The notes under the pieces are model-generated. The model searched no databases. It saw only the letters and a program-made list of their open reading frames with translations, and was not told the DNA's origin. This document shows, piece by piece, positions 8,932 to 26,942 of a stretch of DNA of 26,942 bases. Origin of the DNA: a virus (lineage: Duplodnaviria; Heunggongvirae; Uroviricota; Caudoviricetes); IMG/VR virus record IMGVR_UViG_3300030616_000569; one strand, given 5' to 3'. Numbering within the stretch: position 1 is the stretch's first letter; each line of letters starts with the position of its first letter. The translations under genes were made by a program, and so were the position numbers.

Positions 8932-9087
8932 TTGACGAAACAAAAATCATTAAAATTTCATGATATGAAGACGCACAAATCTTTCAATTCTTCGAACTAT
9001 AATCATGTTAATCGTGGAAAAACAAAGTTTGCTGTAGCAAAAAATCCAAGTGGAAACGAATCTTGGAGAATAGTTGGAAAGAAATAA
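8932..9087 (+). CDS. 51-aa CC1-like (crenarchaeal chromatin protein 1) small basic DNA-binding protein
   Basis: TTG start 7 nt after aggtga; MTKQKSLKFHDMKTHKSFNSSNYNHVNRGKTKFAVAKNPSGNESWRIVGKK matches the recalled CC1 pattern LKF.D.K....F....Y...RG...FAVAK.P..G....R..GKK. Confidence 0.75.
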   Translation: MTKQKSLKFHDMKTHKSFNSSNYNHVNRGKTKFAVAKNPSGNESWRIVGKK

Positions 9088-9088
9088 C

Positions 9089-9746: not shown

Positions 9747-10400
9747 ATGAATAACGAAAATCGTGGTTGGTTTAATCATTCAAAAGAGCATTCTTTGGCT
9801 TCTCAAGGTATTCCTACAAAGAAATCAGATCCAAGAACGGAGACAAAAACAGTGGATACTAATGTTGTTAAGAAGACCAACAATTTGTCATTTGATAGAG
9901 AAACAGAGAGAGTGATGGAATTATTTGCTGATGTTAATCAAAAATATGAGATTTCACCATCAGTTAATAACAATGGTATAAAATTAAGTGAAGATGAATT
10001 ATTGAACATACTCAAATATTCTATACCAAATGGTTGTGGAACATTTAACAATGAAGAATTTGTTAAATTAGCTCAGTTATATGAACCAAAATGCAAATTT
10101 ATTATAAAACGTGATCCAGAGGACGGTGGTGTAATTATTTCTGTTTATGGTACACCACTGACACATCCAGGACAAATAAAAGAGTGGGTTAACTCTAGTT
10201 ATGTTACAACTGATGAAAACAATGTCTTTACTTATAAATGGACATCGATTGGTGTTATTAATAAAAACATAGATAAATCAGCAAAGCTATCACATGATGA
10301 TAGATTACTACTAGAATGGTCTGAAGAGGTCAAAACAAGGCAAACTGACTTATCTTTCCCAGACTGGATAAGGTCAGGTGAAATTGATGAAGAAAGGTAA
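9747..10400 (+). CDS. GW..RH.LA..GI-tagged protein 1, unknown cargo domain
   Basis: Tag GWFNHSKEHSLASQGI at 9765-9812; soluble. Confidence 0.75.
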   Translation: MNNENRGWFNHSKEHSLASQGIPTKKSDPRTETKTVDTNVVKKTNNLSFDRETERVMELFADVNQKYEISPSVNNNGIKLSEDELLNILKYSIPNGCGTFNNEEFVKLAQLYEPKCKFIIKRDPEDGGVIISVYGTPLTHPGQIKEWVNSSYVTTDENNVFTYKWTSIGVINKNIDKSAKLSHDDRLLLEWSEEVKTRQTDLSFPDWIRSGEIDEER

Positions 10401-11121
10401 AGGGTGGAGAGGTGAACCTTTTCGACATAGTTTGGCAGGACAGGGTATATCAACATATAGATTAGTCAGAGATAGACCAGATAAGAATAAACAAGATTTT
10501 GAATCACAAAAAAGATATGGTACAGTCACAAAACAACCATTATTTCCCACTTATAAAGGTGATTATAAAAACAGATATAAAAAACATCGTGTAGTTCTCA
10601 ATTATCCTGATAACATGAAAGAAGGTGACAGGTTTAATTACAATATGGAAATGTCTGATGAATCTCTTACACCAGAAGACAGACAGGAGATATATGACAG
10701 ATGGCAAAAATGGAAGGAGTGGCGAAGCGGGAAAGGTCACATTCATAGAATAATTTCAAATTTAGAGTTTGAAGATAATCCATATCGTCCATATTATGTG
10801 ACGAATTCTAATTACCCACCAGAAGGTTATAGGTGGGTTGATGATGAATCAGAAATCAAGGTTGCAGAAGGAAGACTTCTTGGCAAATTCTATCCTGATT
10901 TGACATATGAAGAATTTGATCAGTTTATGACATTTGATGAGTTCATGGATACAACTAAAGTTAGACCAACAAGAACTCGAAGCAGTACTAAAAGAAAAGT
11001 TGGCAAAAAGACACCTGGAAGAGAGGAAATGCAAGATATTTCAGAACAGCGTCTTTCTGCATATAGATCACATAAAGATAGAAGAATTGAAGAATTAGAA
11101 GAGAGAAGGAGAAGTAGATAA
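10387..11121 (+). CDS. Tagged protein 2, charged, unknown cargo
   Basis: SD ggtga 10377-10381 supports ATG 10387; tag GWRGEPFRHSLAGQGI at 10402-10449. Confidence 0.75.
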   Translation: MKKGKGWRGEPFRHSLAGQGISTYRLVRDRPDKNKQDFESQKRYGTVTKQPLFPTYKGDYKNRYKKHRVVLNYPDNMKEGDRFNYNMEMSDESLTPEDRQEIYDRWQKWKEWRSGKGHIHRIISNLEFEDNPYRPYYVTNSNYPPEGYRWVDDESEIKVAEGRLLGKFYPDLTYEEFDQFMTFDEFMDTTKVRPTRTRSSTKRKVGKKTPGREEMQDISEQRLSAYRSHKDRRIEELEERRRSR

Positions 11122-11123
11122 TT

Positions 11124-11483
11124 ATGTATCAACAACCAGTAATGCATATTGAGCGTGGTACAAGTAGATTAGTTGCATTGATGAATGGTCCAAGACTTAA
11201 TGTTGGGTTATTATTATCGTCAGTGATAATTTCTATGTTAATTGGAATAATAATTCTTGGTACCATGGGTCTTTCTGCATTCATAGGTGTAATTTGTATT
11301 ATTTATGCAGGTATAGCATTACTTTTAAATAGAGGTAAATTCTTGTCAGAAACAGTGATAATCATTCTTATAATTGGTGTAGCATTCTTGGTACTTCATT
11401 ACGTCGGTGTCGATATGATGGTAATAGATTTTCAGGCATTTGGACCGACAAATAAATTATATGAATTGTTCCATCAGAGGTGA
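11124..11483 (+). CDS. Multi-TM membrane protein
   Basis: ORF track, three hydrophobic helices. Confidence 0.75.
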   Translation: MYQQPVMHIERGTSRLVALMNGPRLNVGLLLSSVIISMLIGIIILGTMGLSAFIGVICIIYAGIALLLNRGKFLSETVIIILIIGVAFLVLHYVGVDMMVIDFQAFGPTNKLYELFHQR

Positions 11484-11488
11484 AACAT

Positions 11489-11731
11489 ATGTTTAAATTT
11501 AACAAAAGAACGCTAGTTTCTTCATTGACAGCAGGTTTTTTTATAACTCTGTTTACTGGATACTTTGTACTCGGTGGTACTGGTGAATATGGTGGTATAT
11601 TCTTAGGGTGGTATCCTCTTGATACTAGGTTGCCATTTCTAGGTGGTGAATTCATAATAAATGTTCTATTGTGGACTGCAATATCAAGTTTCATTATACA
11701 AGTATTCATAAAAAAGAGGATACCTTTTTGA
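11489..11731 (+). CDS. Two-TM membrane protein
   Basis: SD aggtga supports ATG 11489; hydrophobic ends. Confidence 0.7.
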   Translation: MFKFNKRTLVSSLTAGFFITLFTGYFVLGGTGEYGGIFLGWYPLDTRLPFLGGEFIINVLLWTAISSFIIQVFIKKRIPF

Positions 11732-11739
11732 GGTGAATT

Positions 11740-12363
11740 ATGAAAAATAATCATGCGATAGCTCCAATAATTGGTGTTATTATAATTGCAAGTGCAATCG
11801 GTGCAAGTGCTGGTAGTTATGTTATCTATGAAAATAACAAATCATATGAGATCGAACCAAACACAGTATTCGTACACAAAGATTATGGTAATGGTCTAGA
11901 TAATTCGAAAGAGACAACATCACAACCAGTGGTAACAGAATATGAGATTACGACTAATACAGCAATATCTAATATTCTTAGTTATATCGGAAGTGATACA
12001 ACTATAGATGTAGATAGTTATCGTGGGTGTATAGATAAATTAAATGTTAATGTATATTGTGTGAATGGTAAGACAATGGATAGTATAATTGACGACTATA
12101 AGACAAAGATAAATGAAGATGGGTATACAATCGAAATTGAACAAGATCGTGATAATTCAGGTTGGTCTGGGAAACTCATCTTTGCAAGAGGTAGTCTACA
12201 TGGTCGTCTTATTGTTGTTGCAAGTGGATCAGTGATAGAAAAAATATTTGGTTGTGATGTTCTTTTGATTACATCAAGTGCATTTCTAACTGATTATTAT
12301 TCTTGCCAACATTTGATTGAAGGACAATCTGAAGAACCAAATAATTGTTGTGGAGAGAGTTAA
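11740..12363 (+). CDS. N-terminally anchored alpha/beta surface protein, paralog of 23710-24237; possible class III signal peptide
   Basis: KNNHA-IAPIIGVIII N-terminus; shared motifs with 23710-24237. Confidence 0.7.
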   Translation: MKNNHAIAPIIGVIIIASAIGASAGSYVIYENNKSYEIEPNTVFVHKDYGNGLDNSKETTSQPVVTEYEITTNTAISNILSYIGSDTTIDVDSYRGCIDKLNVNVYCVNGKTMDSIIDDYKTKINEDGYTIEIEQDRDNSGWSGKLIFARGSLHGRLIVVASGSVIEKIFGCDVLLITSSAFLTDYYSCQHLIEGQSEEPNNCCGES

Positions 12364-12364
12364 T

Positions 12365-12637
12365 ATGCCACCAGGAAGACGTGCAAGATCATTTATTAAT
12401 CACGGTCCACGTGGTATGTATAGAAGAAGGATTTTTTCTGGTGTCCTTATCACAATTATACTGATATTAGGAGTATTACTACTTGGTTATATGTCATTTA
12501 TACCGATCATTCCTGCTGTTATATATGCATTTGCATTCTTTACTATATTTCTAAGTGTTAAATTGTATCGTGTGACGCCTATATTATTAGGTACTCTATT
12601 AATAATATTCTCGACATATTGGGTATTATATTGGTGA
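12365..12637 (+). CDS. Membrane protein with Arg-rich N-terminal tail
   Basis: ATG 12365 just after stop 12363; MPPGRRARS...RRRI followed by three TM helices. Confidence 0.7.
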   Translation: MPPGRRARSFINHGPRGMYRRRIFSGVLITIILILGVLLLGYMSFIPIIPAVIYAFAFFTIFLSVKLYRVTPILLGTLLIIFSTYWVLYW

Positions 12638-12641
12638 TAGT

Positions 12642-12854
12642 ATGGCAAAACCCCTTACACTATTAGCAAGATTACCAGATAATATAAGATTTCTGGTAAT
12701 TATAATTATAGTCATGGTTGGATTATGGATGTTTATAACACCATTTTATAATTGGGTGATAGAAATGTTTGAAATTAATCCATTATGGTCAATAATAATA
12801 GGTGCCATAATTGTATATTATGGTATTAAAAAATGTAGACTACATCCGTGGTGA
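12642..12854 (+). CDS. 70-aa two-TM membrane protein
   Basis: ORF track, SD ggtga, helical hairpin. Confidence 0.75.
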   Translation: MAKPLTLLARLPDNIRFLVIIIIVMVGLWMFITPFYNWVIEMFEINPLWSIIIGAIIVYYGIKKCRLHPW

Positions 12855-12861
12855 TAACTTA

Positions 12862-12993
12862 ATGCCGAAAGAACTAGAAAGATCTCTTGAGAAACAAGCG
12901 AAGAAGAAGGGATTTAAAGGAGAAAGAAGAGATCGTTATATTTATGGTACAATGAGAAAAATGGGTTGGAAACCAAAACGTGAAATGAGGTGA
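12862..12993 (+). CDS. 43-aa basic microprotein
   Basis: SD ggtga 12850-12854 supports ATG 12862; MPKELERSLEKQAKKKGFKGERRDRYIYGTMRKMGWKPKREMR. Confidence 0.7.
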   Translation: MPKELERSLEKQAKKKGFKGERRDRYIYGTMRKMGWKPKREMR

Positions 12994-12999
12994 TTAAAT

Positions 13000-13131
13000 A
13001 TGGCTAAAAAAGGAGTACCAAAACACGATGGATCTGGAAAAGGTCAACGTGCAAATCGTGGTCGTGGAGGTTGTAAAACAACACGGTCAAGAGGTCTTGG
13101 ATTAAGAAATTACATAAGAGGTAGAAGGTAA
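13000..13131 (+). CDS. 43-aa Gly/Arg/Lys-rich protamine-like microprotein
   Basis: Hand-translated MAKKGVPKHDGSGKGQRANRGRGGCKTTRSRGLGLRNYIRGRR; SD gaggtga; TAATG overlap with the next gene. Confidence 0.75.
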   Translation: MAKKGVPKHDGSGKGQRANRGRGGCKTTRSRGLGLRNYIRGRR

Positions 13132-13343
13132 TGAAAATAATACGAAAGTTGAGACATATTCTATTATTTATCGTTTTATTTGGATCTGATCTAGTGATCG
13201 GTTTCTTTGGTCATTATCAAGGGTCAGGTGGTGGCGACTTTATTGAATATATCTCTGAGTTATCATTCAGTGATATTGGACCAACTCTAGTTGTCGCAGT
13301 GACAGTTATTGTCTTTGTAGAGTTTTTATGGAGACATAAATAA
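13131..13343 (+). CDS. 70-aa two-TM membrane protein
   Basis: ORF track, two hydrophobic helices. Confidence 0.7.
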   Translation: MKIIRKLRHILLFIVLFGSDLVIGFFGHYQGSGGGDFIEYISELSFSDIGPTLVVAVTVIVFVEFLWRHK

Positions 13344-13352
13344 GGTGAAAAA

Positions 13353-14138
13353 ATGAAAAACACAAAAATATTTGTAATTGTAATGATGCTGATGCTTTCT
13401 GGTTCATTCTTTTGGACATCTTCAACAGATAATATGATCGTTAGTGCAGGTGATGTTTATAACAGTGCTGCATCGCCAGCAAATGCTACAACACACTATA
13501 GAAATGGAAATTTGACACTTTCTGTAACACTTGTTACTAAAACTGGTGCAACAATGAATCAGAACTTCACTACAAATGTGAGTGGTACATGGACTACAAT
13601 TGGACAGAATTTACATGGTGCAAATGCCACTGTGACTGATACATTATCTGGTTTTACTTCAGCAAATAAGAAGTATTTCTGGGCTTCAAATGTTTCTAAC
13701 TCTAATGCTACACATGAGTGGGATAATAACACCTATTATTTCTACACAATGTCTAGTGATGAGCCACCTACAACATCTGGTGGAAGTAGTGATACTGCCA
13801 ATAGAGTGACAATATTTATAAGGGATTCAAATGGTGATCCAGTCCATGGTGTTAGAGTGCAAGTTGATAAGAGATCAAGGGTAACAAATAACAACGGTGC
13901 TGTTGTATTTACACTTGATTCAGGTTCATATAAAGTATATGCTTTACATGATGATTATAATTTCAACACAGAATTGATAAACACAGATGATAGCTCAACG
14001 TTTACTATCACAACAACATCTAAAGCAACATTAAGTGTTGGTGAAGATGATGGTATTGCATTGCCTGGATTTGAGTTATTTATCTTTGCATTTGCAGCTA
14101 TATGTGTGTTTATAATATATAGAAGAAGGGTGATATAA
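13353..14138 (+). CDS. PGF-CTERM surface glycoprotein with prealbumin/carboxypeptidase-regulatory-like domain
   Basis: Signal peptide; many N-x-S/T sequons; PGFE + TM + RRR tail at 14064-14138. Confidence 0.85.
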   Translation: MKNTKIFVIVMMLMLSGSFFWTSSTDNMIVSAGDVYNSAASPANATTHYRNGNLTLSVTLVTKTGATMNQNFTTNVSGTWTTIGQNLHGANATVTDTLSGFTSANKKYFWASNVSNSNATHEWDNNTYYFYTMSSDEPPTTSGGSSDTANRVTIFIRDSNGDPVHGVRVQVDKRSRVTNNNGAVVFTLDSGSYKVYALHDDYNFNTELINTDDSSTFTITTTSKATLSVGEDDGIALPGFELFIFAFAAICVFIIYRRRVI

Positions 14139-15331
14139 TGAGAAAAAAAACAAGTGCCTTTTTAATAGGTGTGATTGTTGTATTTGCAGTAATAGGTGCA
14201 TATTTTATTACAACAACAGTAGCAGATAACATAGACGACTGGATGGGTGATATATCAATTATGTCTGGTCAGTGGAAACAAGATATAAAATTTACGCTTG
14301 CAGATGGCAGAGTAGAGAATCTCAACACAATGTCTTTATGGCATGAAGATACTCAAGTTACTGATGTATCAATAACAATATCTGCACGTGCATACACTCC
14401 AGCAGGAAAAGATCCTTGGGAGGATGTTGAAGTTGATTTAGCAGCATGTTCACTTGGTGCAACATACGGTGATAGTGTAAATACAACAACAATATGGTCA
14501 GATTCTAGAGATCAAACTGGAATGGTAACAGGTGCGGTAGATGGTGATTGGTTTGTTGTAATGTCTGAATCATTTGATTTAGAATCAGCTTCTGATGATA
14601 CTTGGGAAAGCGGAGATGTATTATCCTTTGTTCTATCAGGTGCAATAAATTATCGTGGTTCGACTGGAACAGAATCTAGTGATTGGAAAACAATAGACTC
14701 TCCTGGTCTTGCTGATATTTATTTGTCATATGTCGGAAAGGACATAATGTTAGAATGGCAAGATAGTATCGATTGGGACGGAGGAACAACAACCTATGAT
14801 ACTGATGGTGACGGTGTCAATGATGAGATCGATAACTGTCCACTTACACCGAACCCTGATCAAATAGATACAGATGGTGACGGTGCAGGTGATGCTTGTG
14901 ATACATATGATGATGGAGAACTCAGATTAGTAATTGAAGATGCGACAGTTAACTACGGTGACACAGTTGATGTGAACATATATCTATACAACGCTGAAAA
15001 CATCGAGAATATTCGTGTATACTCTGAAATACTTGATACGTTCTTTATAGAGTGTACTGGTGTCAGTTGGGACTCAAGTGATTTTTCTCAAGTGACATCT
15101 GGGTATAATGATGTTGTTGGATGGTTCAGAGGAGAAGCATCATCACCTATTGGCGGCAATCTAAACGTGTGTACATTTACATATCTTGGAACGAATCTTG
15201 GTACATCAGAATTGAGTCTGGATAACACAAATCTACAGATTCTAGATGGTTATGGTAGTCCAGTATATCCAATACTACAAAACGGTGTGATCACTGTAAC
15301 AACTGGTGCTGCTGGTGGGTCATCTGGGTGA
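14138..15331 (+). CDS. N-anchored surface protein with thrombospondin type 3 repeats and a C-terminal cohesin-like domain
   Basis: DTDGDGVNDEIDNCPLTPNPDQIDTDGDGAGDACD at 14798-14902; cohesin-like ends (V..GDTVDVNIYL ... QNGVITVT). Confidence 0.75.
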   Translation: MRKKTSAFLIGVIVVFAVIGAYFITTTVADNIDDWMGDISIMSGQWKQDIKFTLADGRVENLNTMSLWHEDTQVTDVSITISARAYTPAGKDPWEDVEVDLAACSLGATYGDSVNTTTIWSDSRDQTGMVTGAVDGDWFVVMSESFDLESASDDTWESGDVLSFVLSGAINYRGSTGTESSDWKTIDSPGLADIYLSYVGKDIMLEWQDSIDWDGGTTTYDTDGDGVNDEIDNCPLTPNPDQIDTDGDGAGDACDTYDDGELRLVIEDATVNYGDTVDVNIYLYNAENIENIRVYSEILDTFFIECTGVSWDSSDFSQVTSGYNDVVGWFRGEASSPIGGNLNVCTFTYLGTNLGTSELSLDNTNLQILDGYGSPVYPILQNGVITVTTGAAGGSSG

Positions 15332-15336
15332 TCCTG

Positions 15337-15687
15337 ATGTCGAAGATGAAGGATGAAAACATCAAGAGACTAAACAAAATAAAAGAATCTCGAGATAGAA
15401 AGGGTTGGCATGGCGAATCTCGTCGCCATTCCCTCGCCTCTCGAGGCATATATACTAGATTTCCAAGCAAAAGATCTGTTGATACACCAGTAGGAAAATA
15501 TGGTTCACCAAATAAAGTAGATCTAACACCAATGGAGATTGATTACAATAGATTTATGGAAGAGCGTGATGATGATTTATCTTGGGAAGATTGGGAAAAA
15601 AAGGAACATCCAGAGTATTTCGATAAAGAAAAACTAGAAAAACAGATAAGGGAAGAATTCAGAAGTGGAAAATATTCGAAACAATGA
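15337..15687 (+). CDS. Tagged protein 3, short charged cargo
   Basis: SD ggtga supports ATG 15337; tag GWHGESRRHSLASRGI at 15403-15450. Confidence 0.75.
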   Translation: MSKMKDENIKRLNKIKESRDRKGWHGESRRHSLASRGIYTRFPSKRSVDTPVGKYGSPNKVDLTPMEIDYNRFMEERDDDLSWEDWEKKEHPEYFDKEKLEKQIREEFRSGKYSKQ

Positions 15688-15698
15688 ATGGTGATAAA

Positions 15699-16016
15699 AT
15701 GGCAAAATCTAGTGGTCGTGGTTGGCACGGTGATTCTCGTCGCCATATACTTGCAAGGTATGGAATCTCTACAAAACCATCTTCAAATATGGCTCGTTTG
15801 GGAGAAAATAACGGTCGGTGGAAAGGCGGTACGTCAAAGACGTATTATCGACCAATTGCAGGGTGCAAACCAAATGATGGAAAGATAGTTCATCATAAAG
15901 ATCACGATAAGACAAACCCACATCCAGCAAATCTTGAAGCCCTAGATAATAGAGGTATATCTGCAATGGCAAAACATAATAAAGCTCATCCAGAAAAAGG
16001 TAGAAAGAAGGAATGA
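15699..16016 (+). CDS. Tagged protein 4: minimal HNH endonuclease
   Basis: Tag GWHGDSRRHILARYGI at 15720-15767; GENNGRWKGG (NUMOD3-like) then VHHKDHDKTNPHPANLEAL...HNKAH. Confidence 0.8.
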   Translation: MAKSSGRGWHGDSRRHILARYGISTKPSSNMARLGENNGRWKGGTSKTYYRPIAGCKPNDGKIVHHKDHDKTNPHPANLEALDNRGISAMAKHNKAHPEKGRKKE

Positions 16017-16022
16017 TAATAT

Positions 16023-16487
16023 ATGGTAAAACGAGCAACTCAATTGTATAATAGAAGACATAAAAATATGCCTTTTGAGCCATATGTAAGTGGTAACAAA
16101 AGACAGTTGAAACACATACTTGTACAGAATACAAGGATTGTTCGTAAAGATGGGACTGAAGATGTTGGAAGACTTGCAGATAAATATTATTTCCGTATCT
16201 TTAAACACAAAGGTCAGCCATATACACTTTATCTTGGTCCACCAAAGAGAACGCATGGTGGTCTTAGAGTCAAAAGTACTGATAAAAACAAAATCAGATC
16301 GGGTAGAAGGACAAAAAGTGTTGGTGGTACTTCGAAACCAACGGTGCATGAGAAAACTGACGTAGAAAAATTCTTAGAACAATATAAAGAAATAGACTCT
16401 GGTCCTCACTCTGGAAAATACAAACATAAAAAAAGTGGTGACATTCTTACTGAAACACAATTAAGATTGGCACTTGCAAAGAGGTAA
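16023..16487 (+). CDS. Highly basic soluble protein, putative nucleic-acid binding
   Basis: Lys/Arg-rich, no TM, no recognisable family. Confidence 0.65.
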   Translation: MVKRATQLYNRRHKNMPFEPYVSGNKRQLKHILVQNTRIVRKDGTEDVGRLADKYYFRIFKHKGQPYTLYLGPPKRTHGGLRVKSTDKNKIRSGRRTKSVGGTSKPTVHEKTDVEKFLEQYKEIDSGPHSGKYKHKKSGDILTETQLRLALAKR

Positions 16488-16490
16488 TGT

Positions 16491-17435
16491 ATGAAACAAC
16501 AGTCGGCGATAACATCTGCTATAATTATATTACTTGTAGTTGTCAGTATTGGTGTTTATGTATCACAATCTCTAACTATATATGATAATCAATTATATAT
16601 CAATCCATATAATGATGGTTCTATAACAAATCTGCAAACAAAAGGATCAACAGATCATTTTCAGTGTGTTAATGAAGGAATGTCAAATGATGGTGACAAA
16701 TCATATGTATTTCTTAATGAACCAGATTTACCTTCAGTTGATCAGTATGGATGTCCACCGATAGGTGTGTATGATGGACAGATAGGATCTATTCAGGTTG
16801 TTGCATGTGCAAGGTACTATGGTACTGGTACTGCTGAGTTACATCTTGGATTAGATACAGAAAATTGGGTATTTTCACCTTGTGATGATTCTTCAGTACT
16901 GACTTCTGGTTACAAAGAATATACAGTGACATTTGATGAGAGACCATCTGGTGGTCAGTTCTTATGGTCAGATCTTGAAGATATGGGTATAGGTGTAAAA
17001 CCTTATATTTATCCAGATGCTTCTGGTGAGGTTAGAATAACTTCTGTATATGTTGTCATAAATTATGGTACTGTTAATCCAATCTATAATCTAGAAGTGT
17101 CATATAATACAACACGTGGTTATGTTGAAATTGAAAACCTATCGATGCCACTTCAAGTGACATCAAGGGATTATGAAAGTGGATCAATAGTCAAATTGAT
17201 TGCACATAGTGTTAGTCCATATGAGTTTATTAGATGGGCAGGTGATTTGGAAAGTGAAAGTAATCCTGATGTTATAACAATGGATGGTCATAAATCTATA
17301 ACAGCAGTGTTTTCTTTACCAGATGATCCTGATCCAGGTCCTGATCCAAATGATACACCAGGATTTGAGGTTATTACTTTGTTTACAGGAATTGTAATTT
17401 CAATAATGTTAATAATGAGGAAAAAACATGCTTAA
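16491..17435 (+). CDS. PGF-CTERM surface protein with an InlB B-repeat-like domain
   Basis: N-terminal TM/signal; Y..GSIVKLIA....YEFIRWAGD...ITMDGHKSITAVF; Pro/Asp linker; PGFE + TM + RKK at 17358-17435. Confidence 0.85.
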   Translation: MKQQSAITSAIIILLVVVSIGVYVSQSLTIYDNQLYINPYNDGSITNLQTKGSTDHFQCVNEGMSNDGDKSYVFLNEPDLPSVDQYGCPPIGVYDGQIGSIQVVACARYYGTGTAELHLGLDTENWVFSPCDDSSVLTSGYKEYTVTFDERPSGGQFLWSDLEDMGIGVKPYIYPDASGEVRITSVYVVINYGTVNPIYNLEVSYNTTRGYVEIENLSMPLQVTSRDYESGSIVKLIAHSVSPYEFIRWAGDLESESNPDVITMDGHKSITAVFSLPDDPDPGPDPNDTPGFEVITLFTGIVISIMLIMRKKHA

Positions 17436-17724
17436 TACAATATTTAGGAAACTATTCAGAAGGAAATATGAGCTTCTTGTTCTTGGTGTAATTGTATTTC
17501 TCACAACAATTATAGGAAAAGTAATTTCTGTAGAGCATTGGATTACTATCGATTTTGATCTTAGTTCATATAGTCCATGGGCACCAATAATTGCTTTTAT
17601 TTGGGCAGGTGCAGGAATCCTTGTGCTTTGGATAAGAAAGATACGAGCACCTTCTTTGTGGTTTATATTCTTGTCAAGTTTAGTATATACATTTATAATG
17701 TTCTGGGCAATTTGGTTGAAGTGA
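17428..17724 (+). CDS. Three-TM membrane protein
   Basis: ORF track, overlap with upstream gene. Confidence 0.75.
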   Translation: MLNTIFRKLFRRKYELLVLGVIVFLTTIIGKVISVEHWITIDFDLSSYSPWAPIIAFIWAGAGILVLWIRKIRAPSLWFIFLSSLVYTFIMFWAIWLK

Positions 17725-17729
17725 TAATA

Positions 17730-17963
17730 ATGAATGTAATAATAAAACACTTTGTGTCTTGGTTAGTTGCTACATTAATAATATACTACTATGTTGTCTC
17801 AACATTTGGTCAAGAGATGTTTGTCTTAATGTTTATTAGTTTTCTTGTTATAATATTGATATATTACTTCTCACAATTTATAAAAAAATATTTAATGTTA
17901 CCAATTATTGCACTAACGATCTCAACAATTATTTACTATTACTTAATAATGGGAAATATATAA
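17730..17963 (+). CDS. 77-aa three-TM membrane protein
   Basis: ATG 17730 avoids a long overlap; almost entirely hydrophobic. Confidence 0.7.
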   Translation: MNVIIKHFVSWLVATLIIYYYVVSTFGQEMFVLMFISFLVIILIYYFSQFIKKYLMLPIIALTISTIIYYYLIMGNI

Positions 17964-17972
17964 GGTGAAAAA

Positions 17973-19496: not shown

Positions 19497-20017
19497 TGCC
19501 TATGCCAGTGTATGCTCCACACGCATCACAAGCTCGTGGTCTCACACGATCACAAGGTGTCAGAATAGTTGTATTTATTATGATAGCTGCAATAATGATA
19601 TCAGCAGTTGTTATATTCGTCAGCGGTGATTTCGGTATAGGATATAAATTTACTGTCTCTGGTGATGTACGTCTTGGTGGTCTTGGTGACGGATCGTGGT
19701 ATATAGAAAATATACAGATATCTGAACCAATAGCAGATAAAAGTATACTTGAGTTTGGATTCGGTCTACTTGATACATCTAGTATTGATGTTGTTTGTGA
19801 ACTACAAGGAAAATCAGTTACTGATGGCCTTGGTACATTTTCAACAATTGGCGGAACAAAACACTTTACATGTGAATTCAGGCATATATTACCAGGATAT
19901 TATTCTGGAGAGATATATGTTTATGAAAATATGTGTGGTTTAATTCCAATAAATTGTGACACAGTGGAACAAGCAAATGAACCATTCAGTATTGATATTG
20001 ATATAATAGGTGATTAA
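19496..20017 (+). CDS. Single-TM beta-rich surface protein
   Basis: TAATG coupling, N-proximal TM. Confidence 0.7.
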   Translation: MPMPVYAPHASQARGLTRSQGVRIVVFIMIAAIMISAVVIFVSGDFGIGYKFTVSGDVRLGGLGDGSWYIENIQISEPIADKSILEFGFGLLDTSSIDVVCELQGKSVTDGLGTFSTIGGTKHFTCEFRHILPGYYSGEIYVYENMCGLIPINCDTVEQANEPFSIDIDIIGD

Positions 20018-20019
20018 AA

Positions 20020-21975
20020 ATGAAAAAGGTAATAATACCAATAATATTGATTATCCTTGCAGTGCTTATTGTTAGTGGTGCATATCTTAATCTAAGAACA
20101 TTTGATATGGTAGATGGACAAGTTATCCATTATGATTCACAACCAACTGATCCAGTGATTTGGTATGGACCAGTACCACAGGGATTTAAACATTATTGTT
20201 TTGGTAATCTAGTTAAGGATACCATAAATCCAACTGGTGAATTAGTGAAAGATCTCAATATTGTATCCTCATGGTCTTCAGATGGTATGAGTATGTCAAT
20301 ATCTATTAATCCTGGTTCATATAGTGTCGGTTGTGATAAAGTATTTCCACTTGTTGGACCAAATCCACATACAACAAAGTGGTGGTATGAATTAACGTTT
20401 TATGATGGTGGAACAGGACAAAAAACAGTTCTTGCTGATGAAAGTGGTCTTCGTGATTCCCCATCTATGATAACTGATGTTCAATTTTTAACATTTGGAT
20501 TTAATGATTGGGTAGGTAGTTGGACAGGTTATGAGTTTATGCCAGTTAGCAGTGATGTTTTTATACTACCATGTGAACACAGTGATGGTTGGTATGTTGG
20601 TGATGTTGTAGAAACTATAGACAATGATGATGATCCAGAAGAGTGGCTCGATGCTATATCGAAACCAGTCACATTCAAGTTACTTGGTCCAGTTGATGGA
20701 ATCCTAAAGATAGAATTAAAAACTAAATTGTTTTGGTGGGATACACCAGATGCTAAAAAAACATATCATTGTAATGAAGTGGCTTGGATAACTGATTGGG
20801 TACAAATCTCACGTGGAGAATGTGCTATATCTATAGATCCAAGTCCTGATGCATATAGACCTACTATATTTGAAGAGGGTGAAACAGTTAGTATAAACAT
20901 TCAAACAGATTATGCTGGAAATACAGTTTCATCTGTTGGTCAATGGCGTGTAACTATATATAACCCAGATGGAATTGCAATGGGTGATCCTGATGATGAT
21001 ATTATTGGTGATGGTGATATTGAATTGATACATCCTGATGGTTCAAGAACGGATGGTCTTTTCTATGTTGATGATCTTGCAGGTGGTGGTGTCGGTGGTT
21101 TCCAATGGTATACTGTAAGATGGATAATTCCAGAGGATATTTCTCTTGATTATACAAAAAAGGATTGGGAGATAAAAATAGAGAATACAATTCAAGCAAA
21201 AAAAACAGATGATTTTATCATAACTGTCCTTGGTGGTCGTGATGATGGACCATTAAATCCATTTGTTGAGATAACAAATAAAGATAGTGAAGATTATACA
21301 AAACATGTTGAATGTCTTGCAGAAGGTAATCCTGATGGAACAGGTGAAGTATCATACTTTACACTTCAGGCAACCTCGAATGGAATAAAATTCTTTGAGC
21401 AGACATGGACAGCACATTCTTCGTATTCTACAAATGCATATACTGCATCTGGTGATATACCAATAACAAATGGTGTCATACGTGTGTTCATGAGGGCTTA
21501 TGATAAAAACAATATGCCGTCTGCAAGAGTAGAAGATAGTTTTAATCATGATCCTGATGGTACATTAGGATGTTTAGTAGATATATACACGAAATACGGT
21601 GATGATACACCAATCCCAGGTGTAACGATAACACTGAATGATGATGTGTCTGAAACATATTCTACTGATGGTCAAGGTCATGTTGAAATAATTGTACCAA
21701 AAGGAAATAGAGTAAAAATATGCGCTGAGCACGATGGCGATGTTATATGTGCAAACCCGAGAATTACAACTAATGGTCAAGTTGTTAATTTGTATTTTGG
21801 GTTTTCAACAATGATGATAATATCAATTGCAATTGGTATAATTATTATGTCACTTTGTATTATTGCATTTATTATGCTCCACATTTCTATACCTTGGAAA
21901 ATATTGATAATGTTCATTGGTGGTATTGTATCCCTATTCATTTATATAATACTAAATGGATACTTGTATTTGTAG
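20020..21975 (+). CDS. 651-aa surface protein, N-TM/signal and C-terminal TM hairpin; candidate spike
   Basis: Large acidic beta-rich ectodomain with about nine Cys; no family recognised except a membrane-proximal prealbumin-like domain. Confidence 0.7.
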   Translation: MKKVIIPIILIILAVLIVSGAYLNLRTFDMVDGQVIHYDSQPTDPVIWYGPVPQGFKHYCFGNLVKDTINPTGELVKDLNIVSSWSSDGMSMSISINPGSYSVGCDKVFPLVGPNPHTTKWWYELTFYDGGTGQKTVLADESGLRDSPSMITDVQFLTFGFNDWVGSWTGYEFMPVSSDVFILPCEHSDGWYVGDVVETIDNDDDPEEWLDAISKPVTFKLLGPVDGILKIELKTKLFWWDTPDAKKTYHCNEVAWITDWVQISRGECAISIDPSPDAYRPTIFEEGETVSINIQTDYAGNTVSSVGQWRVTIYNPDGIAMGDPDDDIIGDGDIELIHPDGSRTDGLFYVDDLAGGGVGGFQWYTVRWIIPEDISLDYTKKDWEIKIENTIQAKKTDDFIITVLGGRDDGPLNPFVEITNKDSEDYTKHVECLAEGNPDGTGEVSYFTLQATSNGIKFFEQTWTAHSSYSTNAYTASGDIPITNGVIRVFMRAYDKNNMPSARVEDSFNHDPDGTLGCLVDIYTKYGDDTPIPGVTITLNDDVSETYSTDGQGHVEIIVPKGNRVKICAEHDGDVICANPRITTNGQVVNLYFGFSTMMIISIAIGIIIMSLCIIAFIMLHISIPWKILIMFIGGIVSLFIYIILNGYLYL

Positions 21976-21976
21976 G

Positions 21977-22600
21977 ATGTCTATGAAATCATTATTTGTG
22001 GTATATTTGATGATCATCGTGTCATTTTCTTGTGGTTGTATAAATCTAGAGACCAATATTAATGAAAGTTACACGAACTATCCGTTGTATTATGAATTAG
22101 ATGAAATATCTACACTATTACCTGATACAGCGAAGATTCCTTGTAATGTTTCATTGATGATAACATATCCAGATGGTAAACACTATGGGATATATCGTGT
22201 ATATGCAACATCTAGGAATGTTGTGTTTCATCCAGTAAATCATACGCTGTTTCAAACAGGTATTTACACTGCAAAATATGAAGTATCTAATGTGATTAAA
22301 TACGATTATTTTTTTGCAGGGTCTATAGATTCCAGAATTGTGTTTAACCCTACCAAATTTGAGGTAAATGACGATAAGGTTTCCCTAAAGGTAACAAATA
22401 ACGGCAAAATAGATGGGTTTCTATACCTTACCCTTTATACAAAGAAACCTTTTGTATTAGGGTCTAAAATAGTCTATAACAATTATTATGTAAATGACAT
22501 TATATTTGTCAAAAATGGACATTTCTATGAATTTGATCATAATGTGAATTCAGATGAAATGGTAGTATTGATAAATGGAGAATTATATGAATTGAGGTGA
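21977..22600 (+). CDS. Lipoprotein
   Basis: ATG 21977/21983; hydrophobic stretch then SCG-C lipobox-like motif. Confidence 0.7.
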   Translation: MSMKSLFVVYLMIIVSFSCGCINLETNINESYTNYPLYYELDEISTLLPDTAKIPCNVSLMITYPDGKHYGIYRVYATSRNVVFHPVNHTLFQTGIYTAKYEVSNVIKYDYFFAGSIDSRIVFNPTKFEVNDDKVSLKVTNNGKIDGFLYLTLYTKKPFVLGSKIVYNNYYVNDIIFVKNGHFYEFDHNVNSDEMVVLINGELYELR

Positions 22601-22604
22601 TGAT

Positions 22605-23201
22605 ATGACAAAACCGTATAAAAAAGATATGAAGGGTAAGCAATTCAACAAATATGTAGATTCAAAACTCAATGAAGATACAACCAAATCAATTTCTGTA
22701 CCAAAACGATCTTATGGTATGAATGTTAAAACTGCAAATCGTGGGAAACAGGGTTGGTATGATGAGTCGTATAGACATAAGCTTGCTGCTCTTGGTATTT
22801 CTAGTGCTATAGATAAACGAAATGAAGTTAAGACAGCAACAACTAGACATTATCAAGGATCAAGACATTTACAAGGTAGTGAGAAATTTGATGATGAACC
22901 ACCAACTGAACTTGTTTCTATCTATATAGATGAACTTCATGATTCACTGAATGAAAATAACAGAAGATATGAGTCTGGTGAAATATCATCGGATGAACAT
23001 GAGAGAGCCGAAAATGTTATTGTTGCCACTGCGAATTTTATACATGAAAGAAGAGGTTCAATCTCAGATGATGATTTAACAGATGTTATGAGACAATCAC
23101 GTGGTGCACAAAGAGGATCAAATGAGATGATGTTCTATTATAATATAGGTAAAATAGAGAAAGGTGCAGACTACACATATAATACAAAGGGTTGGGTATG
23201 A
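22605..23201 (+). CDS. Tagged protein 5 (tag at residue 50), helical acidic cargo
   Basis: Tag GWYDESYRHKLAALGI at 22752-22799. Confidence 0.75.
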   Translation: MTKPYKKDMKGKQFNKYVDSKLNEDTTKSISVPKRSYGMNVKTANRGKQGWYDESYRHKLAALGISSAIDKRNEVKTATTRHYQGSRHLQGSEKFDDEPPTELVSIYIDELHDSLNENNRRYESGEISSDEHERAENVIVATANFIHERRGSISDDDLTDVMRQSRGAQRGSNEMMFYYNIGKIEKGADYTYNTKGWV

Positions 23202-23710
23202 AGAAGATATATGCATATTTTCTTCTATTGTTCATATTATCTATTATTTCCACATCTGTCATAGAAGCTGATGAGTCATTTGACGTGAAGGTAAAAGTTC
23301 TCAATGATGATGAGCCATTGTACAATGTGTTTGTGTCAATAGGTAATGAATCAAGTCTTACAAATGATAATGGTATTGCTAGATTATCTGTTCCTGGTGG
23401 AACATATACACTTTCAATTATATCAGTAGATTTTGGCAAAATAATAGATGAAGTTATAATAATATCAGATGATTATTATGAAGTCGATTTTTCATATACT
23501 GATACTGTAAATGAAGAGTCGGATTCTTTCACTGTGAATCCATACATAATATTTGTTATATTATTAGTTATAATATTTGCGATACTTATAGGATCTCCTA
23601 CACAAACGAATTTTATTAAAAAGTATCAGGAGAGTCCTTGGACATATATTGCAGCAGGTATAGTGTTGTTTATAGTGATATATGTGTTAACAATAAATGG
23701 TGGTCTATAA
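23198..23710 (+). CDS. Secreted prealbumin-like domain protein with two C-terminal TM helices
   Basis: ATGA overlap supports ATG 23198; LTNDNGIARLSVPGGTYTL motif. Confidence 0.75.
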   Translation: MKKIYAYFLLLFILSIISTSVIEADESFDVKVKVLNDDEPLYNVFVSIGNESSLTNDNGIARLSVPGGTYTLSIISVDFGKIIDEVIIISDDYYEVDFSYTDTVNEESDSFTVNPYIIFVILLVIIFAILIGSPTQTNFIKKYQESPWTYIAAGIVLFIVIYVLTINGGL

Positions 23711-24237
23711 TGAAAAAAATGAAAAATAGTACAATGGCAGTTGTTGCAATTGTAATACTTGCATCAGCTGTTGGTGCAGCATATTATCTTGGGTACATTG
23801 ATATTCCAGATCTTGGAATAAATCTTTTGTCAGGTGATTTAACACCTTCAGGTGCCAATAAACTTCAAGTTTCTTCAGGTGACATATACACTGCACTTGA
23901 TACAATATCAACAAAGGAACTTAATCTAACAGATGTAGAACCATATTTTTCTACTCTAAATATGGGAATGTGGTGTTCACCAATGTCTGCATTACCTCTT
24001 GCAGAATGGTATGATGCTGAATTAACTGCTGATGGGTGGGCACCAAGTGAATCGGGTACAAGATCTGGCAGTGATTGGATCGCATATATCAGGACTTGGA
24101 CTCGTGGTGATCAGGCATATTGTATCATTGTTGGTGAAGGTGCATCCGTAAATACAATATATGGTTGCACGACTGTATATATTATGGGACACGGATCTAT
24201 CGGTACAGTTGAACAATTTTTGGTATACTTCAGTTAG
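23710..24237 (+). CDS. N-anchored surface protein, paralog of 11740-12363
   Basis: TAATG overlap supports ATG 23710; shared motifs. Confidence 0.7.
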   Translation: MKKMKNSTMAVVAIVILASAVGAAYYLGYIDIPDLGINLLSGDLTPSGANKLQVSSGDIYTALDTISTKELNLTDVEPYFSTLNMGMWCSPMSALPLAEWYDAELTADGWAPSESGTRSGSDWIAYIRTWTRGDQAYCIIVGEGASVNTIYGCTTVYIMGHGSIGTVEQFLVYFS

Positions 24238-24247
24238 TGGTGATAAT

Positions 24248-24556
24248 ATGATAGGTATGTTGTTATCAATGAAACTTGTCGGAAAGGAAAGTTGGTTAAG
24301 ATCAATTATCTTTTGGGCAGTTGTCTTTGTGTTAGGTATTGTCACAGGAATATTTACTGTATTGGTTCCATTCTTGTCTCTAGTAGTCGGTGCACTGATA
24401 GTTATTTTACTAGCTCATTATTGGTACAAAAAAAATCTTTTATTATCTGTCGTTATATTTGCAGTCGGGTATGTCATTGACATTGTTATAATGTACCTTC
24501 TTGTTTTACTAGGACTCTACTCTGCTATGGCACTATCAGTATTTGAAATGATATAA
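24248..24556 (+). CDS. 102-aa multi-TM membrane protein
   Basis: SD ggtga 24239-24243 supports ATG 24248. Confidence 0.75.
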   Translation: MIGMLLSMKLVGKESWLRSIIFWAVVFVLGIVTGIFTVLVPFLSLVVGALIVILLAHYWYKKNLLLSVVIFAVGYVIDIVIMYLLVLLGLYSAMALSVFEMI

Positions 24557-24583
24557 TCAGATATGTATTATCAGTGATAAAAA

Positions 24584-25177
24584 ATGACAAAATCCAATAA
24601 AGGTTGGCGCAAAGAACCTCGACGACACAGTTTATCTGCTAGAGGTATTAAGAATAAACCAAAAGGAACACCAAGTAAGGAACTTCCATCTGAAGAGGAA
24701 TATGTCAGTAATCATATGAGACATGTTCAAGAAATCCAGGAACAAAAAGAACAACTTGCAAATTCAGATGATGAGTGTTATTTTATTGAAAGTGTGTCAA
24801 GTCTTCCAGATAATATTGGTGGATTTCATCTTGTTGATGGACCATTCACTTATGATAACGCAAAAGAAATAGAGGATTCTTCTTTATTTCCAGGTATGTG
24901 GAAGGTTATCTCTCGATCTGATGCAATAGATAAGTATCACATATCGAAGGACTACTGGATTCCAATTGAAGAGTCTGCATACATTGCAGCACGACAGGGT
25001 GCTGAAGATATGTATGATGATATGGTTTTTCATGAAGAACAGCGCATCGGGATGGGTTTATCATTGGAAGAGTATCAGGATCTAAGAGAGGAGGATCGTG
25101 AATGGTATATCAGTGAGCGTGACAAAATAGCTGAAGAAATAAAGAAAAAAGATGATATGAGAGGAATGAAAAGATGA
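24584..25177 (+). CDS. Tagged protein 6, acidic unknown cargo
   Basis: Tag GWRKEPRRHSLSARGI at 24602-24649. Confidence 0.75.
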   Translation: MTKSNKGWRKEPRRHSLSARGIKNKPKGTPSKELPSEEEYVSNHMRHVQEIQEQKEQLANSDDECYFIESVSSLPDNIGGFHLVDGPFTYDNAKEIEDSSLFPGMWKVISRSDAIDKYHISKDYWIPIEESAYIAARQGAEDMYDDMVFHEEQRIGMGLSLEEYQDLREEDREWYISERDKIAEEIKKKDDMRGMKR

Positions 25178-25722
25178 CACGTGGGTGGTACAACGAGCCT
25201 CGACGTCACTCTTTAGCAAGTCGTGGTATCTCTACGAACAATTATACATATATACCAAGTAAACTCGAGAAATTAGCAAGAGAAAAATGGTCTGTCAGAG
25301 ATTCATTCTGTGAAGAATTAAGTGAATTTATATTAAGTGATGGTAAAATATTGTCTATTGTCGATGACGACGAAAACACATATAGCCATTGCCATGTTTC
25401 TGAAGCGTGGACTGACGTTGAAAAGAGAGATGATGACAAATTTTATATTGAAAACCCAGAATTCAGCGATAACGAAATGAATAGATTTTTAGATGATAGT
25501 GGTGCAATACGTGTCCAAATCTGTAATCACGGTCCAAACGAATTTAATTATTATATACACGCAAACAAAAAACCGACAGAAGTGCAAATTAATTTGATAA
25601 TTGAAGAAGTGGAAAAATATGATTTTGATGAGATTCATTTTCTCTATAGAGATGGAACAAGGGATGTTATAAAAAATCCAAGACCAATTGATATTCAGAG
25701 GTGGGTGAGCAAGTATGACTAA
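25174..25722 (+). CDS. Tagged protein 7, cargo with ILSDG...H...GAIR...PT..Q pattern
   Basis: Tag GWYNEPRRHSLASRGI at 25183-25230; ATGA overlap. Confidence 0.75.
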   Translation: MTRGWYNEPRRHSLASRGISTNNYTYIPSKLEKLAREKWSVRDSFCEELSEFILSDGKILSIVDDDENTYSHCHVSEAWTDVEKRDDDKFYIENPEFSDNEMNRFLDDSGAIRVQICNHGPNEFNYYIHANKKPTEVQINLIIEEVEKYDFDEIHFLYRDGTRDVIKNPRPIDIQRWVSKYD

Positions 25723-26227
25723 AGGCTGGCACCGTGAACCTTACCGTCACAGCCTCGCATCACGTGGTTTCAGAACTAATACTGAAACACGTACATATTA
25801 TCCAGAAAGAGCATCGCATGAAGCATATTCAAATGTAAATAAAGAAACGATTGATTCGTATGCATATGAATCTGTGAAGTTGTTGAATGACCTTGGATTA
25901 AGAACATGGTCATCTTGTTCTTCACATCCAGACAGTGGGTATTATGAAGCAATGATATCTTATACTCACAAAGATGGTTATGAATATATTGAAGAAGCAA
26001 TGAAAAGAGCGGGATGGTCAGTGCAAAAACCAATTAGACTTATGTCAGTGTATGATAAAGATTCTTTAGAAAATGGAACATTCATTATGCCAGATAATGT
26101 GTACATAAATACTAATTATGCTAGAGGATGGGAGAATCAATGGCGTTTTTCTGCTGATATAAGAACAAATACTGAAATGCATGAGTTATGGGATAATACT
26201 GAACGTGAGTTATTAGGATTAATGTGA
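25715..26227 (+). CDS. Tagged protein 8, TYW3/Taw3-like motif cargo
   Basis: Tag GWHREPYRHSLASRGF at 25724-25771; ID...SVKLLNDLGLRTWSSCSSH matches the D...v..lN..G..T.SSC motif. Confidence 0.7.
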   Translation: MTKGWHREPYRHSLASRGFRTNTETRTYYPERASHEAYSNVNKETIDSYAYESVKLLNDLGLRTWSSCSSHPDSGYYEAMISYTHKDGYEYIEEAMKRAGWSVQKPIRLMSVYDKDSLENGTFIMPDNVYINTNYARGWENQWRFSADIRTNTEMHELWDNTERELLGLM

Positions 26228-26231
26228 TAAC

Positions 26232-26579
26232 ATGTCTAATGGTTGGTTTAGAGAAAGTAAAAGACACAGTCTTGCACGTCGAGGTATTACTTCAAGGAAA
26301 ACACCGATAAAAACTCCACTTCATGGTGGTATTGCTGAGTATAGAAAACCAGCTGATTTTAATCCCAGTGATCTTGATAAAGGCATTGATATTGAAATGG
26401 AACACACTGATGATCCAGAGATTGCTGCTCGAATAGCAATGGACCATCTTGAAGAGTATCCAGAATACTACAAATATCTTCCAAAGATGGAACGGAAACT
26501 TGAGAAAAGGGAGTTAAGACAGGCGAAACGAATACAAAAGAAGCGTGACAAGAAGAAGAAAAAGAAACAAAGAAGATGA
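26232..26579 (+). CDS. Tagged protein 9, DUF5661-like cargo
   Basis: Tag GWFRESKRHSLARRGI at 26241-26288; GIDIEMEHTDDPEIAARIAMDHLEEYPEYY signature; poly-Lys tail. Confidence 0.8.
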   Translation: MSNGWFRESKRHSLARRGITSRKTPIKTPLHGGIAEYRKPADFNPSDLDKGIDIEMEHTDDPEIAARIAMDHLEEYPEYYKYLPKMERKLEKRELRQAKRIQKKRDKKKKKKQRR

Positions 26580-26583
26580 TAAA

Positions 26584-26942
26584 ATAACAAATGACAACCG
26601 TGGTTGGCACAATGAGTCAAAACGTCATGCTCTGGCCTCTAAAGGAATTAAGACCAAACGTGACATAACGAATACAGAATATAAAAAACTCTATCCGAAA
26701 TCTCACTGGGAACTAGATTCTGATCATGATGGTGTCAAAAACAAAGACGATTGCTATCCATTCGACAAAGATCGCCAACATACTGGTTTAAAAAAAGAGC
26801 AGAATTTTCAGGAGCTTGATGGTATTGTTTTCTATGATATATCTGACAATCATTTTATTCAGTTGCGTAATGTTGATGATAAGTATGCATATTTTGGACC
26901 TGGGTCAGAATTCTATAATGATGCAAAACATCCACCATATGA
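26584..26942 (+). CDS. Tagged protein 10 (runs off the window end; start appears to be ATA)
   Basis: Hand-translated open frame (I/M)TNDNRGWHNESKRHALASKGIKT..., tag at 26602-26649, TSP3-like DSDHDGVKNKDDCYPFD; no in-frame ATG upstream. Confidence 0.65.
   Translation, partial: MTNDNRGWHNESKRHALASKGIKTKRDITNTEYKKLYPKSHWELDSDHDGVKNKDDCYPFDKDRQHTGLKKEQNFQELDGIVFYDISDNHFIQLRNVDDKYAYFGPGSEFYNDAKHPPY

Follow-up and report, generated by a model that had tools for sequence, protein, structure and literature searches.

In T4, the internal proteins IPI–III and Alt carry a capsid-targeting sequence (CTS) of about 10 residues, which binds the scaffolding core of the prohead and is removed by the prohead protease; in encapsulin systems, short, conserved cargo-loading peptides with a flexible linker dock the cargo on the inner face of the shell. 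We describe here a short peptide (the tag) that stands near the N-terminus of ten otherwise unlike proteins encoded in the IMG/VR virus record IMGVR_UViG_3300030616_000569, a DNA of 26,942 bp that was analyzed over its whole length and is called the window below (30–39% G+C, nearly all coding, on the + strand). A preliminary description of this DNA had likened the peptide to the T4 CTS. As in T4, a short N-terminal peptide is placed on unrelated, fast-evolving and clustered proteins, combining a label with swappable cargo; unlike the CTS, to which it has no sequence likeness, the tag is about 18 residues long and basic, and belongs to elements whose host is probably archaeal. No head, scaffold or protease genes are detectable in the window or in a related complete element (G001, described below), and, since a recognizable capsid, portal, terminase and prohead protease are all missing from the latter, the T4 analogy holds for the design, that is, for a shared short N-terminal peptide on unrelated clustered genes, and not for a head–tail apparatus. 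Encapsulin peptides, for their part, are usually C-terminal and follow another consensus, whereas the tag is N-proximal, and Pfam and PHROGs scans found no encapsulin or HK97-fold shell gene among the proteins of G001 or the window.

A further comparison is offered by the polyvalent proteins of phages and plasmids, which have been argued to enter the host with the DNA in a study that also deals with the packaging of T4 Alt (Iyer et al. 2017, PMC5512222). These proteins and the effectors that phages and conjugative elements fuse to MuF resemble the tagged set in their domains (Pol-beta nucleotidyltransferase, HNH, ADP-ribosyltransferase (ART)/Tpt1-like and, possibly, zincin- and ParB-like), in being encoded among the genes for virion components, and in the logic proposed for them, namely travel with the invading DNA (PMC5512222). 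Polyvalent proteins, however, unite many domains in one giant polypeptide or are fused to the head protein (MuF) (PMC5512222), whereas here the domains are encoded as separate small proteins, each headed by a short tag of its own, a design that stands in contrast to the giant polyvalent proteins of bacteria.

A six-frame regular-expression search of the window recovered the same ten peptides as in the preliminary description, all on the + strand, starting at positions 9765, 10402, 15403, 15720, 22752, 24602, 25183, 25724, 26241 and 26602 and sharing the consensus [KR]-G-W-x-x-E-[SP]-x-R-H-S-L-A-x-x-G-I-x-T. A degenerate DNA pattern for G-W-x6-H-x-L-[AS] matched the window 10 times, against a mean of 0.02 by chance (100 dinucleotide shuffles of the window, with a maximum of 1 match in any shuffle). 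When aligned as DNA, the copies vary synonymously at Ser (TCT/AGT/TCC/AGC), Leu (TTG/CTC/CTT/TTA/CTG) and Arg (CGA/CGC/AGA/CGT), and identical residues are written with the same codon in a fraction of 0.30, below the 0.42 expected from codon usage; as the synonymous codons are thus scrambled, it is at the peptide level that the tag is conserved and selected, in agreement with the earlier claim. Beyond the tag, no pair of window cargos is similar by BLASTP at E<1e-3, and the statement that nothing is shared downstream therefore stands. All of the tagged proteins are hydrophilic (grand average of hydropathy −0.8 to −1.5) with no predicted transmembrane segment, the membrane and secreted proteins of the window are without a tag, and the four untagged soluble proteins encoded after base 3622 are strongly basic (isoelectric point (pI) 10.2–12.0), also as described before.

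The tagged open reading frames (ORFs), all on the + strand, differ in how far the tag lies from the start. Its onset falls at residues 4–9 in six of them, at residue 13 in 15684–16016 (residue 8 when counted from the second Met), at about residues 23–26 in 15328–15687, at about residue 20 in 26545–26942 and at residue 50 in 22605–23201. The tag is accordingly N-proximal, whereas the earlier count of eight copies within the first ~8 residues was too high, three or four copies lying 13–50 residues in. The first ORF (9747–10400; 217 aa, pI 5.3) holds the most divergent copy (9765–9812), which deviates at two otherwise near-invariant positions with H for E/D and E for R, and its cargo, like that of the second ORF (10378–11121; 244–247 aa, pI 9.5; tag 10402–10449), matches no family. 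The third (15328–15687; 116–119 aa) carries the tag at 15403–15450 after an N-terminal extension of about 22–25 residues, and the fourth (15684–16016; 110 aa; tag 15720–15767) combines it with an HNH_3 endonuclease domain (Pfam E=1.2e-5, above the cut-off). In the fifth (22605–23201; 198 aa; tag 22752–22799), a strong GGTGA Shine–Dalgarno sequence ahead of 22605, better than that of the downstream start, argues that the long N-terminus is real. The sixth (24584–25177; 197 aa, pI 5.0; tag 24602–24649), seventh (25174–25722; 182 aa; tag 25183–25230) and eighth (25715–26227; 170 aa; tag 25724–25771) come next, and an ESM Atlas model of the seventh cargo gave no fold match above a TM-score of 0.45. 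The ninth (26232–26579; 115 aa; tag 26241–26288) has a DUF5661 cargo (Pfam E=5.9e-12), and the tenth (26545–26942), with its tag at 26602–26649, about 20 residues past a GTG start, runs off the end of the window; its full-length protein, P0008, has 343 aa.

Outside the window, a 30-column profile built from the ten window tags detected 1,988 proteins at E<=1e-3 among 1.84 billion cluster representatives (HMMER), with tag onset within the first 20 residues in about 140 of the 150 best matches; none of ten sampled clusters had a name or an NCBI source. A strict DNA pattern was found in 2 IMG/VR contigs, at least 119 JGI metagenome stretches and 6 contigs among 185,579 species genomes, in which a narrow peptide pattern returned nothing real, the six contigs having come from the broader DNA pattern. 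Altogether 483 tags were collected from 135 loci, 103 of which have at least two, never on both strands of one locus, and in some loci nearly every gene is tagged (15 of the 18 genes of one locus and 13 of the 14 of a second). The 483 copies give the consensus K-G-W-[KRHFY]-x-E-S-x-R-H-S-L-A-[ARS]-[KR]-G-[IV]-[KR]-T, followed by a Lys-rich linker, with the Trp mostly 2–11 residues after the nearest ATG. The tag thus occurs as multi-copy, same-strand arrays with varied cargo on large virus-like contigs, as the preliminary description anticipated, rather than mainly as single copies in cellular genes.

Four of the six contigs from species genomes were in archaeal bins (Methanosarcinales, Woesearchaeota, a euryarchaeote and an unclassified archaeon). 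The remaining two, of 34–38% G+C, were in bacterial bins, namely L003 in a metagenome-assembled genome (MAG) of Burkholderiales and L006 in a WOR-3 MAG, and are probably mis-binned viral contigs; the gene content of L006 is of the G001 type. Within MAGs the tags are confined to a few contigs, and all six contigs look like the same kind of element. The tag is genuine, widespread and unannotated, and is restricted to related uncultivated, virus-like elements, which are large, AT-rich and probably archaeal as to their hosts.

Comparison of the tag with known families was negative throughout. No Pfam, PHROGs or NCBIfam model covers the tag in the ten window proteins, PDB sequences gave no match at E<=10, and the tag is thus not a copy of a characterized domain in these collections. 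GenBank records of phages and archaeal viruses and PLSDB plasmids gave none or chance matches only, among them a match in the pleomorphic virus ThalV2 (E=9) that was discarded because it lies antisense to an annotated gene. A full-text literature search with tag substrings found nothing relevant, an ESM Atlas look-up of the tag had no usable match, and a word-index protein search restricted to the tag region yielded 3 proteins. The stress-protein KGG repeats of the group-1 late embryogenesis abundant (LEA) type (PF10685), mentioned in the preliminary description as loosely similar, do share with the tag a Gly–aromatic start, an acidic residue and an [AS]-[KR]-G-[GI] end, but their spacing is off by 2–3 residues. 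In the small search space of two IMG/VR records holding 39 tags (G001 and G002), the PF10685 model matched none at E<=10, whereas it matched 6 control genomes, nor did it match the ten window proteins at E<=1; the likeness is thus not one of membership. In the same two records, the NUMOD3 model (PF07460) had 26 matches in G002, all in NUMOD3-repeat genes and none at tags, and none in G001. The NUMOD3 repeats, which are DNA-binding modules of the homing-endonuclease type, are unusually numerous for one element in G002 (a 61-kb IMG/VR relative, L139–L142), where at least five genes contain them (e.g., 255–608, 3494–3952, 10776–11261, 42498–42767 and 60156–60758).

Several known signals were also considered and rejected. 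A Sec, Tat or class III (prepilin-type) signal does not fit, as the hydrophobic core of about 12–20 residues that follows the charged N-region in such signals is missing and a hydrophilic linker rich in Lys, Ser and Pro follows the tag; in particular, the first Arg of the RR pair is variable and no hydrophobic region accompanies it, unlike in a twin-arginine motif. A site of the protein kinase A type (RRxS) is contradicted by A, Y or G in place of the Ser in many copies, and an amphipathic membrane helix by the lack of a hydrophobic face (helical wheel by eye). Arrays of polymorphic toxins or of effectors and immunity proteins, in which every variable toxin gene precedes a small gene for its cognate immunity protein, were set aside because the tagged genes adjoin one another without small untagged genes in between, the stop codon of one often overlapping the start codon of the next.

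Behind the constant tag, the cargos are highly diverse: 396 of them fell into 225 BLAST clusters, of which 174 were singletons, with a median cargo length of 165 aa. Pfam recognized about 15% of 80 cargo representatives, as Pol-beta-type nucleotidyltransferases, GNAT, HNH_3, DUF5661 (the commonest cargo family across the related loci), helix-turn-helix (HTH) proteins, Zn ribbons, M10 peptidase and Tpt1-like proteins, a list that overlaps in part with the domain hubs of polyvalent proteins (PMC5512222). Two more clusters show by eye an HExxH zincin signature and a ParB-like G-x-H-R signature, respectively, readings that Pfam did not confirm. One tagged cargo of G001 (L137:4698–5150) passes the Pfam cut-off for DUF3140 and has a weaker match to DUF6321, and the context of the tag could allow these two families of unknown function to be annotated.

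The window has a block at 3622–24556 (+) in which genes for acidic surface proteins and for small multi-pass membrane proteins are interspersed with the tagged genes. Signals or anchors stand at the N-termini of the surface proteins, many of which are anchored at the C-terminus as well and which contain PKD, CarboxypepD_reg, CBM96, TSP_3, InlB B-repeat and Zn phospholipase C domains; the second class of genes in the block encodes hydrophilic proteins without membrane segments. All are on one strand and tightly packed, with GGTGA-type ribosome-binding sites. The same gene plan is found in G001, a 74-kb IMG/VR record with direct terminal repeats, judged complete by CheckV, in which 25 tagged genes extend over the central ~37 kb, interleaved with 7–8 large acidic membrane-anchored proteins; interleaving with membrane-anchored proteins is seen also in G003:C4. 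The other genes of G001 encode a DNA methylase, a PAPS reductase, a DUF5131/radical-SAM protein, a topoisomerase-like protein, an integrase and a P-loop ATPase, and among 40 of its untagged proteins Pfam and PHROGs gave no capsid, portal, terminase, scaffold or prohead protease at E<=1e-4. Head–tail families are not found among the window proteins either.

BLAST links the large elements through a single protein, the P-loop ATPase, which has 22–27% identity between distant members and is present in all three elements longer than 50 kb. Its profile matches are weak (Zot, below the Pfam cut-off, and a DnaA-like phrog), and it may be described as Zot/pleolipovirus-like. In G003:C4, L025, L081, L109 and L130 the gene order is kept: a two-span membrane protein, a small protein and the ATPase are followed by 2–3 tagged genes, then (where the locus reaches that far) by a secreted spike-like protein, and then by more tags. 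In four of these five loci, the tagged genes after the ATPase include one for a conserved protein of about 500 aa (c5); c5 stands next to a spike-like gene. No protein of these elements comes close to the tag in conservation. The ATPase is often split by an intein (Intein_splicing E=6.6e-12), as in L140:12542–14053 (G002) and L144:1751–4822 (which is G003:C4 21751–24822), its length ranging from ~300 aa without the intein up to 1,023 aa with it.

An AlphaFold2 model of the DUF5661 protein of the window, run with nine homologues, predicts a helical cargo with a predicted local distance difference test score of 83–94 and an N-terminal arm with a score of 47–59, in which one short helix (residues 10–16, K-R-H-S-L-A-R) is not packed on the cargo; Foldseek found no match of the DUF5661 model in the PDB. 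As modeled, a flexible arm bearing a short helix detached from the cargo would fit a docking peptide rather than a domain. In 19 of the 483 copies the tag is extended by a second conserved stretch, T-x-I-D-x-G-R-R-F-D-V-S-x-F-V-A-[KR]-G, and two metagenomic proteins, P0002 (572 aa) and P0029 (654 aa), contain three internal copies each of an extended module of about 100 residues. This module is composed of the tag, P-G-K-R-x-D-V-S-x-F, a second R-R-H-x-H-S-A-R-G-G, and D-Y-K-R-L-R-F-D-K-F-V, and an N-P pair immediately precedes the tag in several of the repeats; such proteins may be polyproteins or repeated docking arrays.

The variable positions of the tag, namely 1, 2, 5, 11, 12 and 15 after the Trp, have element-specific dialects, the identity within an element exceeding that between elements in G001 (0.87 vs 0.40), G004:C50 (0.63 vs 0.39), G002 (0.54 vs 0.36) and G003:C4 (0.52 vs 0.37), with further dialects visible in L004 and L006. 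The use of synonymous codons is at or near chance in three of the four elements and somewhat above it in G001 (0.53 vs 0.39). Such dialects suggest a co-evolving, lineage-specific receptor, not a universal ligand such as DNA.

The account that we tentatively favor, as plausible if somewhat short of probable, is that the tag docks onto a lineage-specific receptor, by which the tagged proteins are recruited into a particle. In the predicted mechanism, the short linear peptide would form, after the invariant Trp, one helix (approximately E-[SP]-x-R-H-S-L-A-x-[KR], with a Gly cap), followed by I-[KR]-T and the flexible Lys-rich linker, without folding onto the cargo, and would offer W, R, H, L and I for binding to a single conserved receptor of this element lineage, which may be encoded by the element. 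The receptor would gather a quarter of the proteome of the element at the assembly site of the particle, which is probably membrane-enveloped, and the gathered proteins would travel with the genome. They would comprise the conserved core protein of about 500 aa, on the one hand, and fast-changing small enzymes and DNA binders (HNH, Pol-beta-type nucleotidyltransferase, GNAT, Tpt1-like, HTH, Zn-ribbon and DUF5661), on the other. This account is supported by the peptide-level selection, the N-proximal position, the unrelated cargos and the dense same-strand clustering of the tag, by its conservation beyond that of the element proteins, by the dialects and the modeled arm, by the position of the arrays among membrane-anchored proteins and downstream of the ATPase block, by that of c5 beside the spike-like gene and, by analogy, by the partial overlap of the cargos with polyvalent proteins (Pol-beta nucleotidyltransferase and HNH), which would suggest a shared logic. 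Since a core protein of ~500 aa, encoded beside the ATPase and the spike-like protein, bears the tag as well, effectors do not make up the whole of the tagged set; the modular, N-proximal, peptide-level label of the preliminary description is thus retained, whereas its restriction to effectors is not. Complex prediction of the tag with the ATPase, the small protein and the soluble part of the membrane protein of locus L130 scored 0.00, which gives no answer.

We further speculate, as a possibility that we hold to be doubtful, that large enveloped archaeal viruses have an as yet undescribed pathway for loading proteins, in which the tag would serve as sorting signal and the receptor, encoded by the element, would lie in the ATPase/membrane block. 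The tagged quarter of the proteome, core protein and rapidly renewed enzymes together, would then be comparable to a tegument, and the dialects would prevent cross-loading between co-infecting relatives.

A number of observations weigh against recruitment into a particle by such a receptor. No receptor was found, the window tags have no dialect (0.26 within vs 0.27 between), and the dialects of other elements can instead stem from the shared descent of paralogues in one element. With no detectable capsid, portal, terminase or maturation protease in G001, the elements could even be plasmid-like. Most cargos are without recognizable function, so that to call them effectors is a guess, and a basic tag with a Lys-rich linker would also suit plain nucleic-acid binding.

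The last point leads to the alternative that survives best, which we nevertheless regard as unlikely, namely that the basic helix and Lys-rich linker bind the DNA of the element, or its nucleoprotein with the small basic proteins of the block, the cargos being placed on the genome or passively co-packaged. The K/R-rich composition of the tag and the next 10–15 residues, the aromatic Trp, the pI of 10–12 of the small untagged neighbors in the block, and the action of many recognizable cargos on nucleic acids (HNH, nucleotidyltransferase, HTH, Zn ribbons and Tpt1) agree with this explanation, as do the few proteins with two or three tag copies, a frequent property of DNA-binding mini-motifs, and, in our own reading, a helix-Gly-x-Thr shape that recalls the helix turn of helix-hairpin-helix or ribbon-helix-helix proteins. 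However, eight residues (W, E, R, H, L, A, G and I), one of them acidic, are nearly invariant, which exceeds what non-specific binding needs; element-specific dialects would be unexpected for a universal ligand; none of the 39 tags in G001 and G002 is matched by the NUMOD3 model; and the GNAT and M10 peptidase cargos have no obvious need for tethering to DNA.

Docking in the infected cell to a conserved machine of the host, such as a chaperone, a protease, or a replication or translation factor, with no role in the virion, appears quite unlikely. Conservation of the tag far beyond that of any element-encoded protein would be expected with a slowly evolving host partner, and the predicted flexible arm resembles a short linear motif. 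Nevertheless, the tagged genes are located in the surface/membrane block and not among replication or early genes, and the tag fits none of the archaeal hub-binding motifs known so far, the comparison with the PIP box, MIM and HbYX being by eye only. The hosts, furthermore, seem diverse (Methanosarcinales, Woesearchaeota and euryarchaeote bins), with uncertain binning.

We consider it very unlikely that the tag is an export signal, by which a membrane and ATPase machine of the element would move the tagged proteins across or into the membrane for secretion instead of packaging. The N-proximal position on otherwise cytoplasmic-looking proteins would suit export, as would the location of the arrays immediately after the ATPase block, in the company of numerous small multi-pass membrane proteins, and the presence of the ATPase in every element above 50 kb; in the opposite direction, the missing hydrophobic core is incompatible with Sec, Tat or class III export, and nothing in the ATPase, with its sub-cut-off Zot and DnaA-like phrog profiles, indicates that it handles proteins. 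Finally, a cis-acting tag with no common partner, be it a module for stability, solubility or translation start, a timed degron, or a hitch-hiking 5′ cassette easing cargo swaps, is scarcely credible, for, although a constant 5′ end with variable bodies is what cassette shuffling would produce and cargo turnover is very high (174 singletons in 396 cargos), the scrambled synonymous sites leave no DNA homology for recombination, the distance of 2 to ~50 residues from the start codon argues against a role in translation initiation, and eight near-invariant residues over ~2,000 families imply a specific binding surface.

If the tag is indeed a sorting label, it would provide a one-line sequence rule for the proteins that are probably particle-associated or co-delivered in a group of uncultivated archaeal viruses, covering ~2,000 families of proteins that so far are purely hypothetical. 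It would also give a handle on the receptor and the assembly machine of viruses without recognizable capsid genes, and a peptide that could be transferred to foreign proteins in order to load them into such particles. To our knowledge, no such label has been described before in archaeal viruses, and the tag would be the first.

The remainder of the window, in which no tRNA genes were found, starts with its replication end, formed by an RFC/RuvB-like AAA+ ATPase (751–1569) and a primase-like protein of 442 aa (1566–2894; weak match to phrog_14296, E=4e-6). Within the surface-protein block, a secreted, membrane-anchored protein (7883–8905) has a zinc-dependent phospholipase C domain (E=1.9e-11), which makes it a candidate membrane remodeler for entry or exit. 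Directly upstream of the first tagged gene, a CPBP/Rce1-like multi-pass intramembrane protease is encoded (9074–9736, +; E=1.6e-13); it was considered as a processor of the tag and rejected because the family is missing from G001, G002 and the tag contigs of the MAGs. The acidic cytoplasmic tails once considered as docking sites on the surface proteins were likewise rejected, the tails being short and basic. As for the untagged soluble proteins, two very basic small ORFs at 12811–13131 (+; 60 aa, pI 10.2, and 43 aa, pI 12.0) are candidate DNA-condensing proteins, to judge from their charge only, and a basic protein of 154 aa (pI 10.4) is encoded at 16023–16487 (+). The fourth, a protein of 54 aa (8923–9087, +; pI 10.7) with no Pfam match, shares 47% identity over 49 residues with the C-terminus (residues 179–227) of the tagged, HExxH-containing protein of G003:C4 (7964–8647; L143:7964–8647), a likeness suggesting that this small basic domain is mobile, occurring either standalone or fused to tagged proteins.

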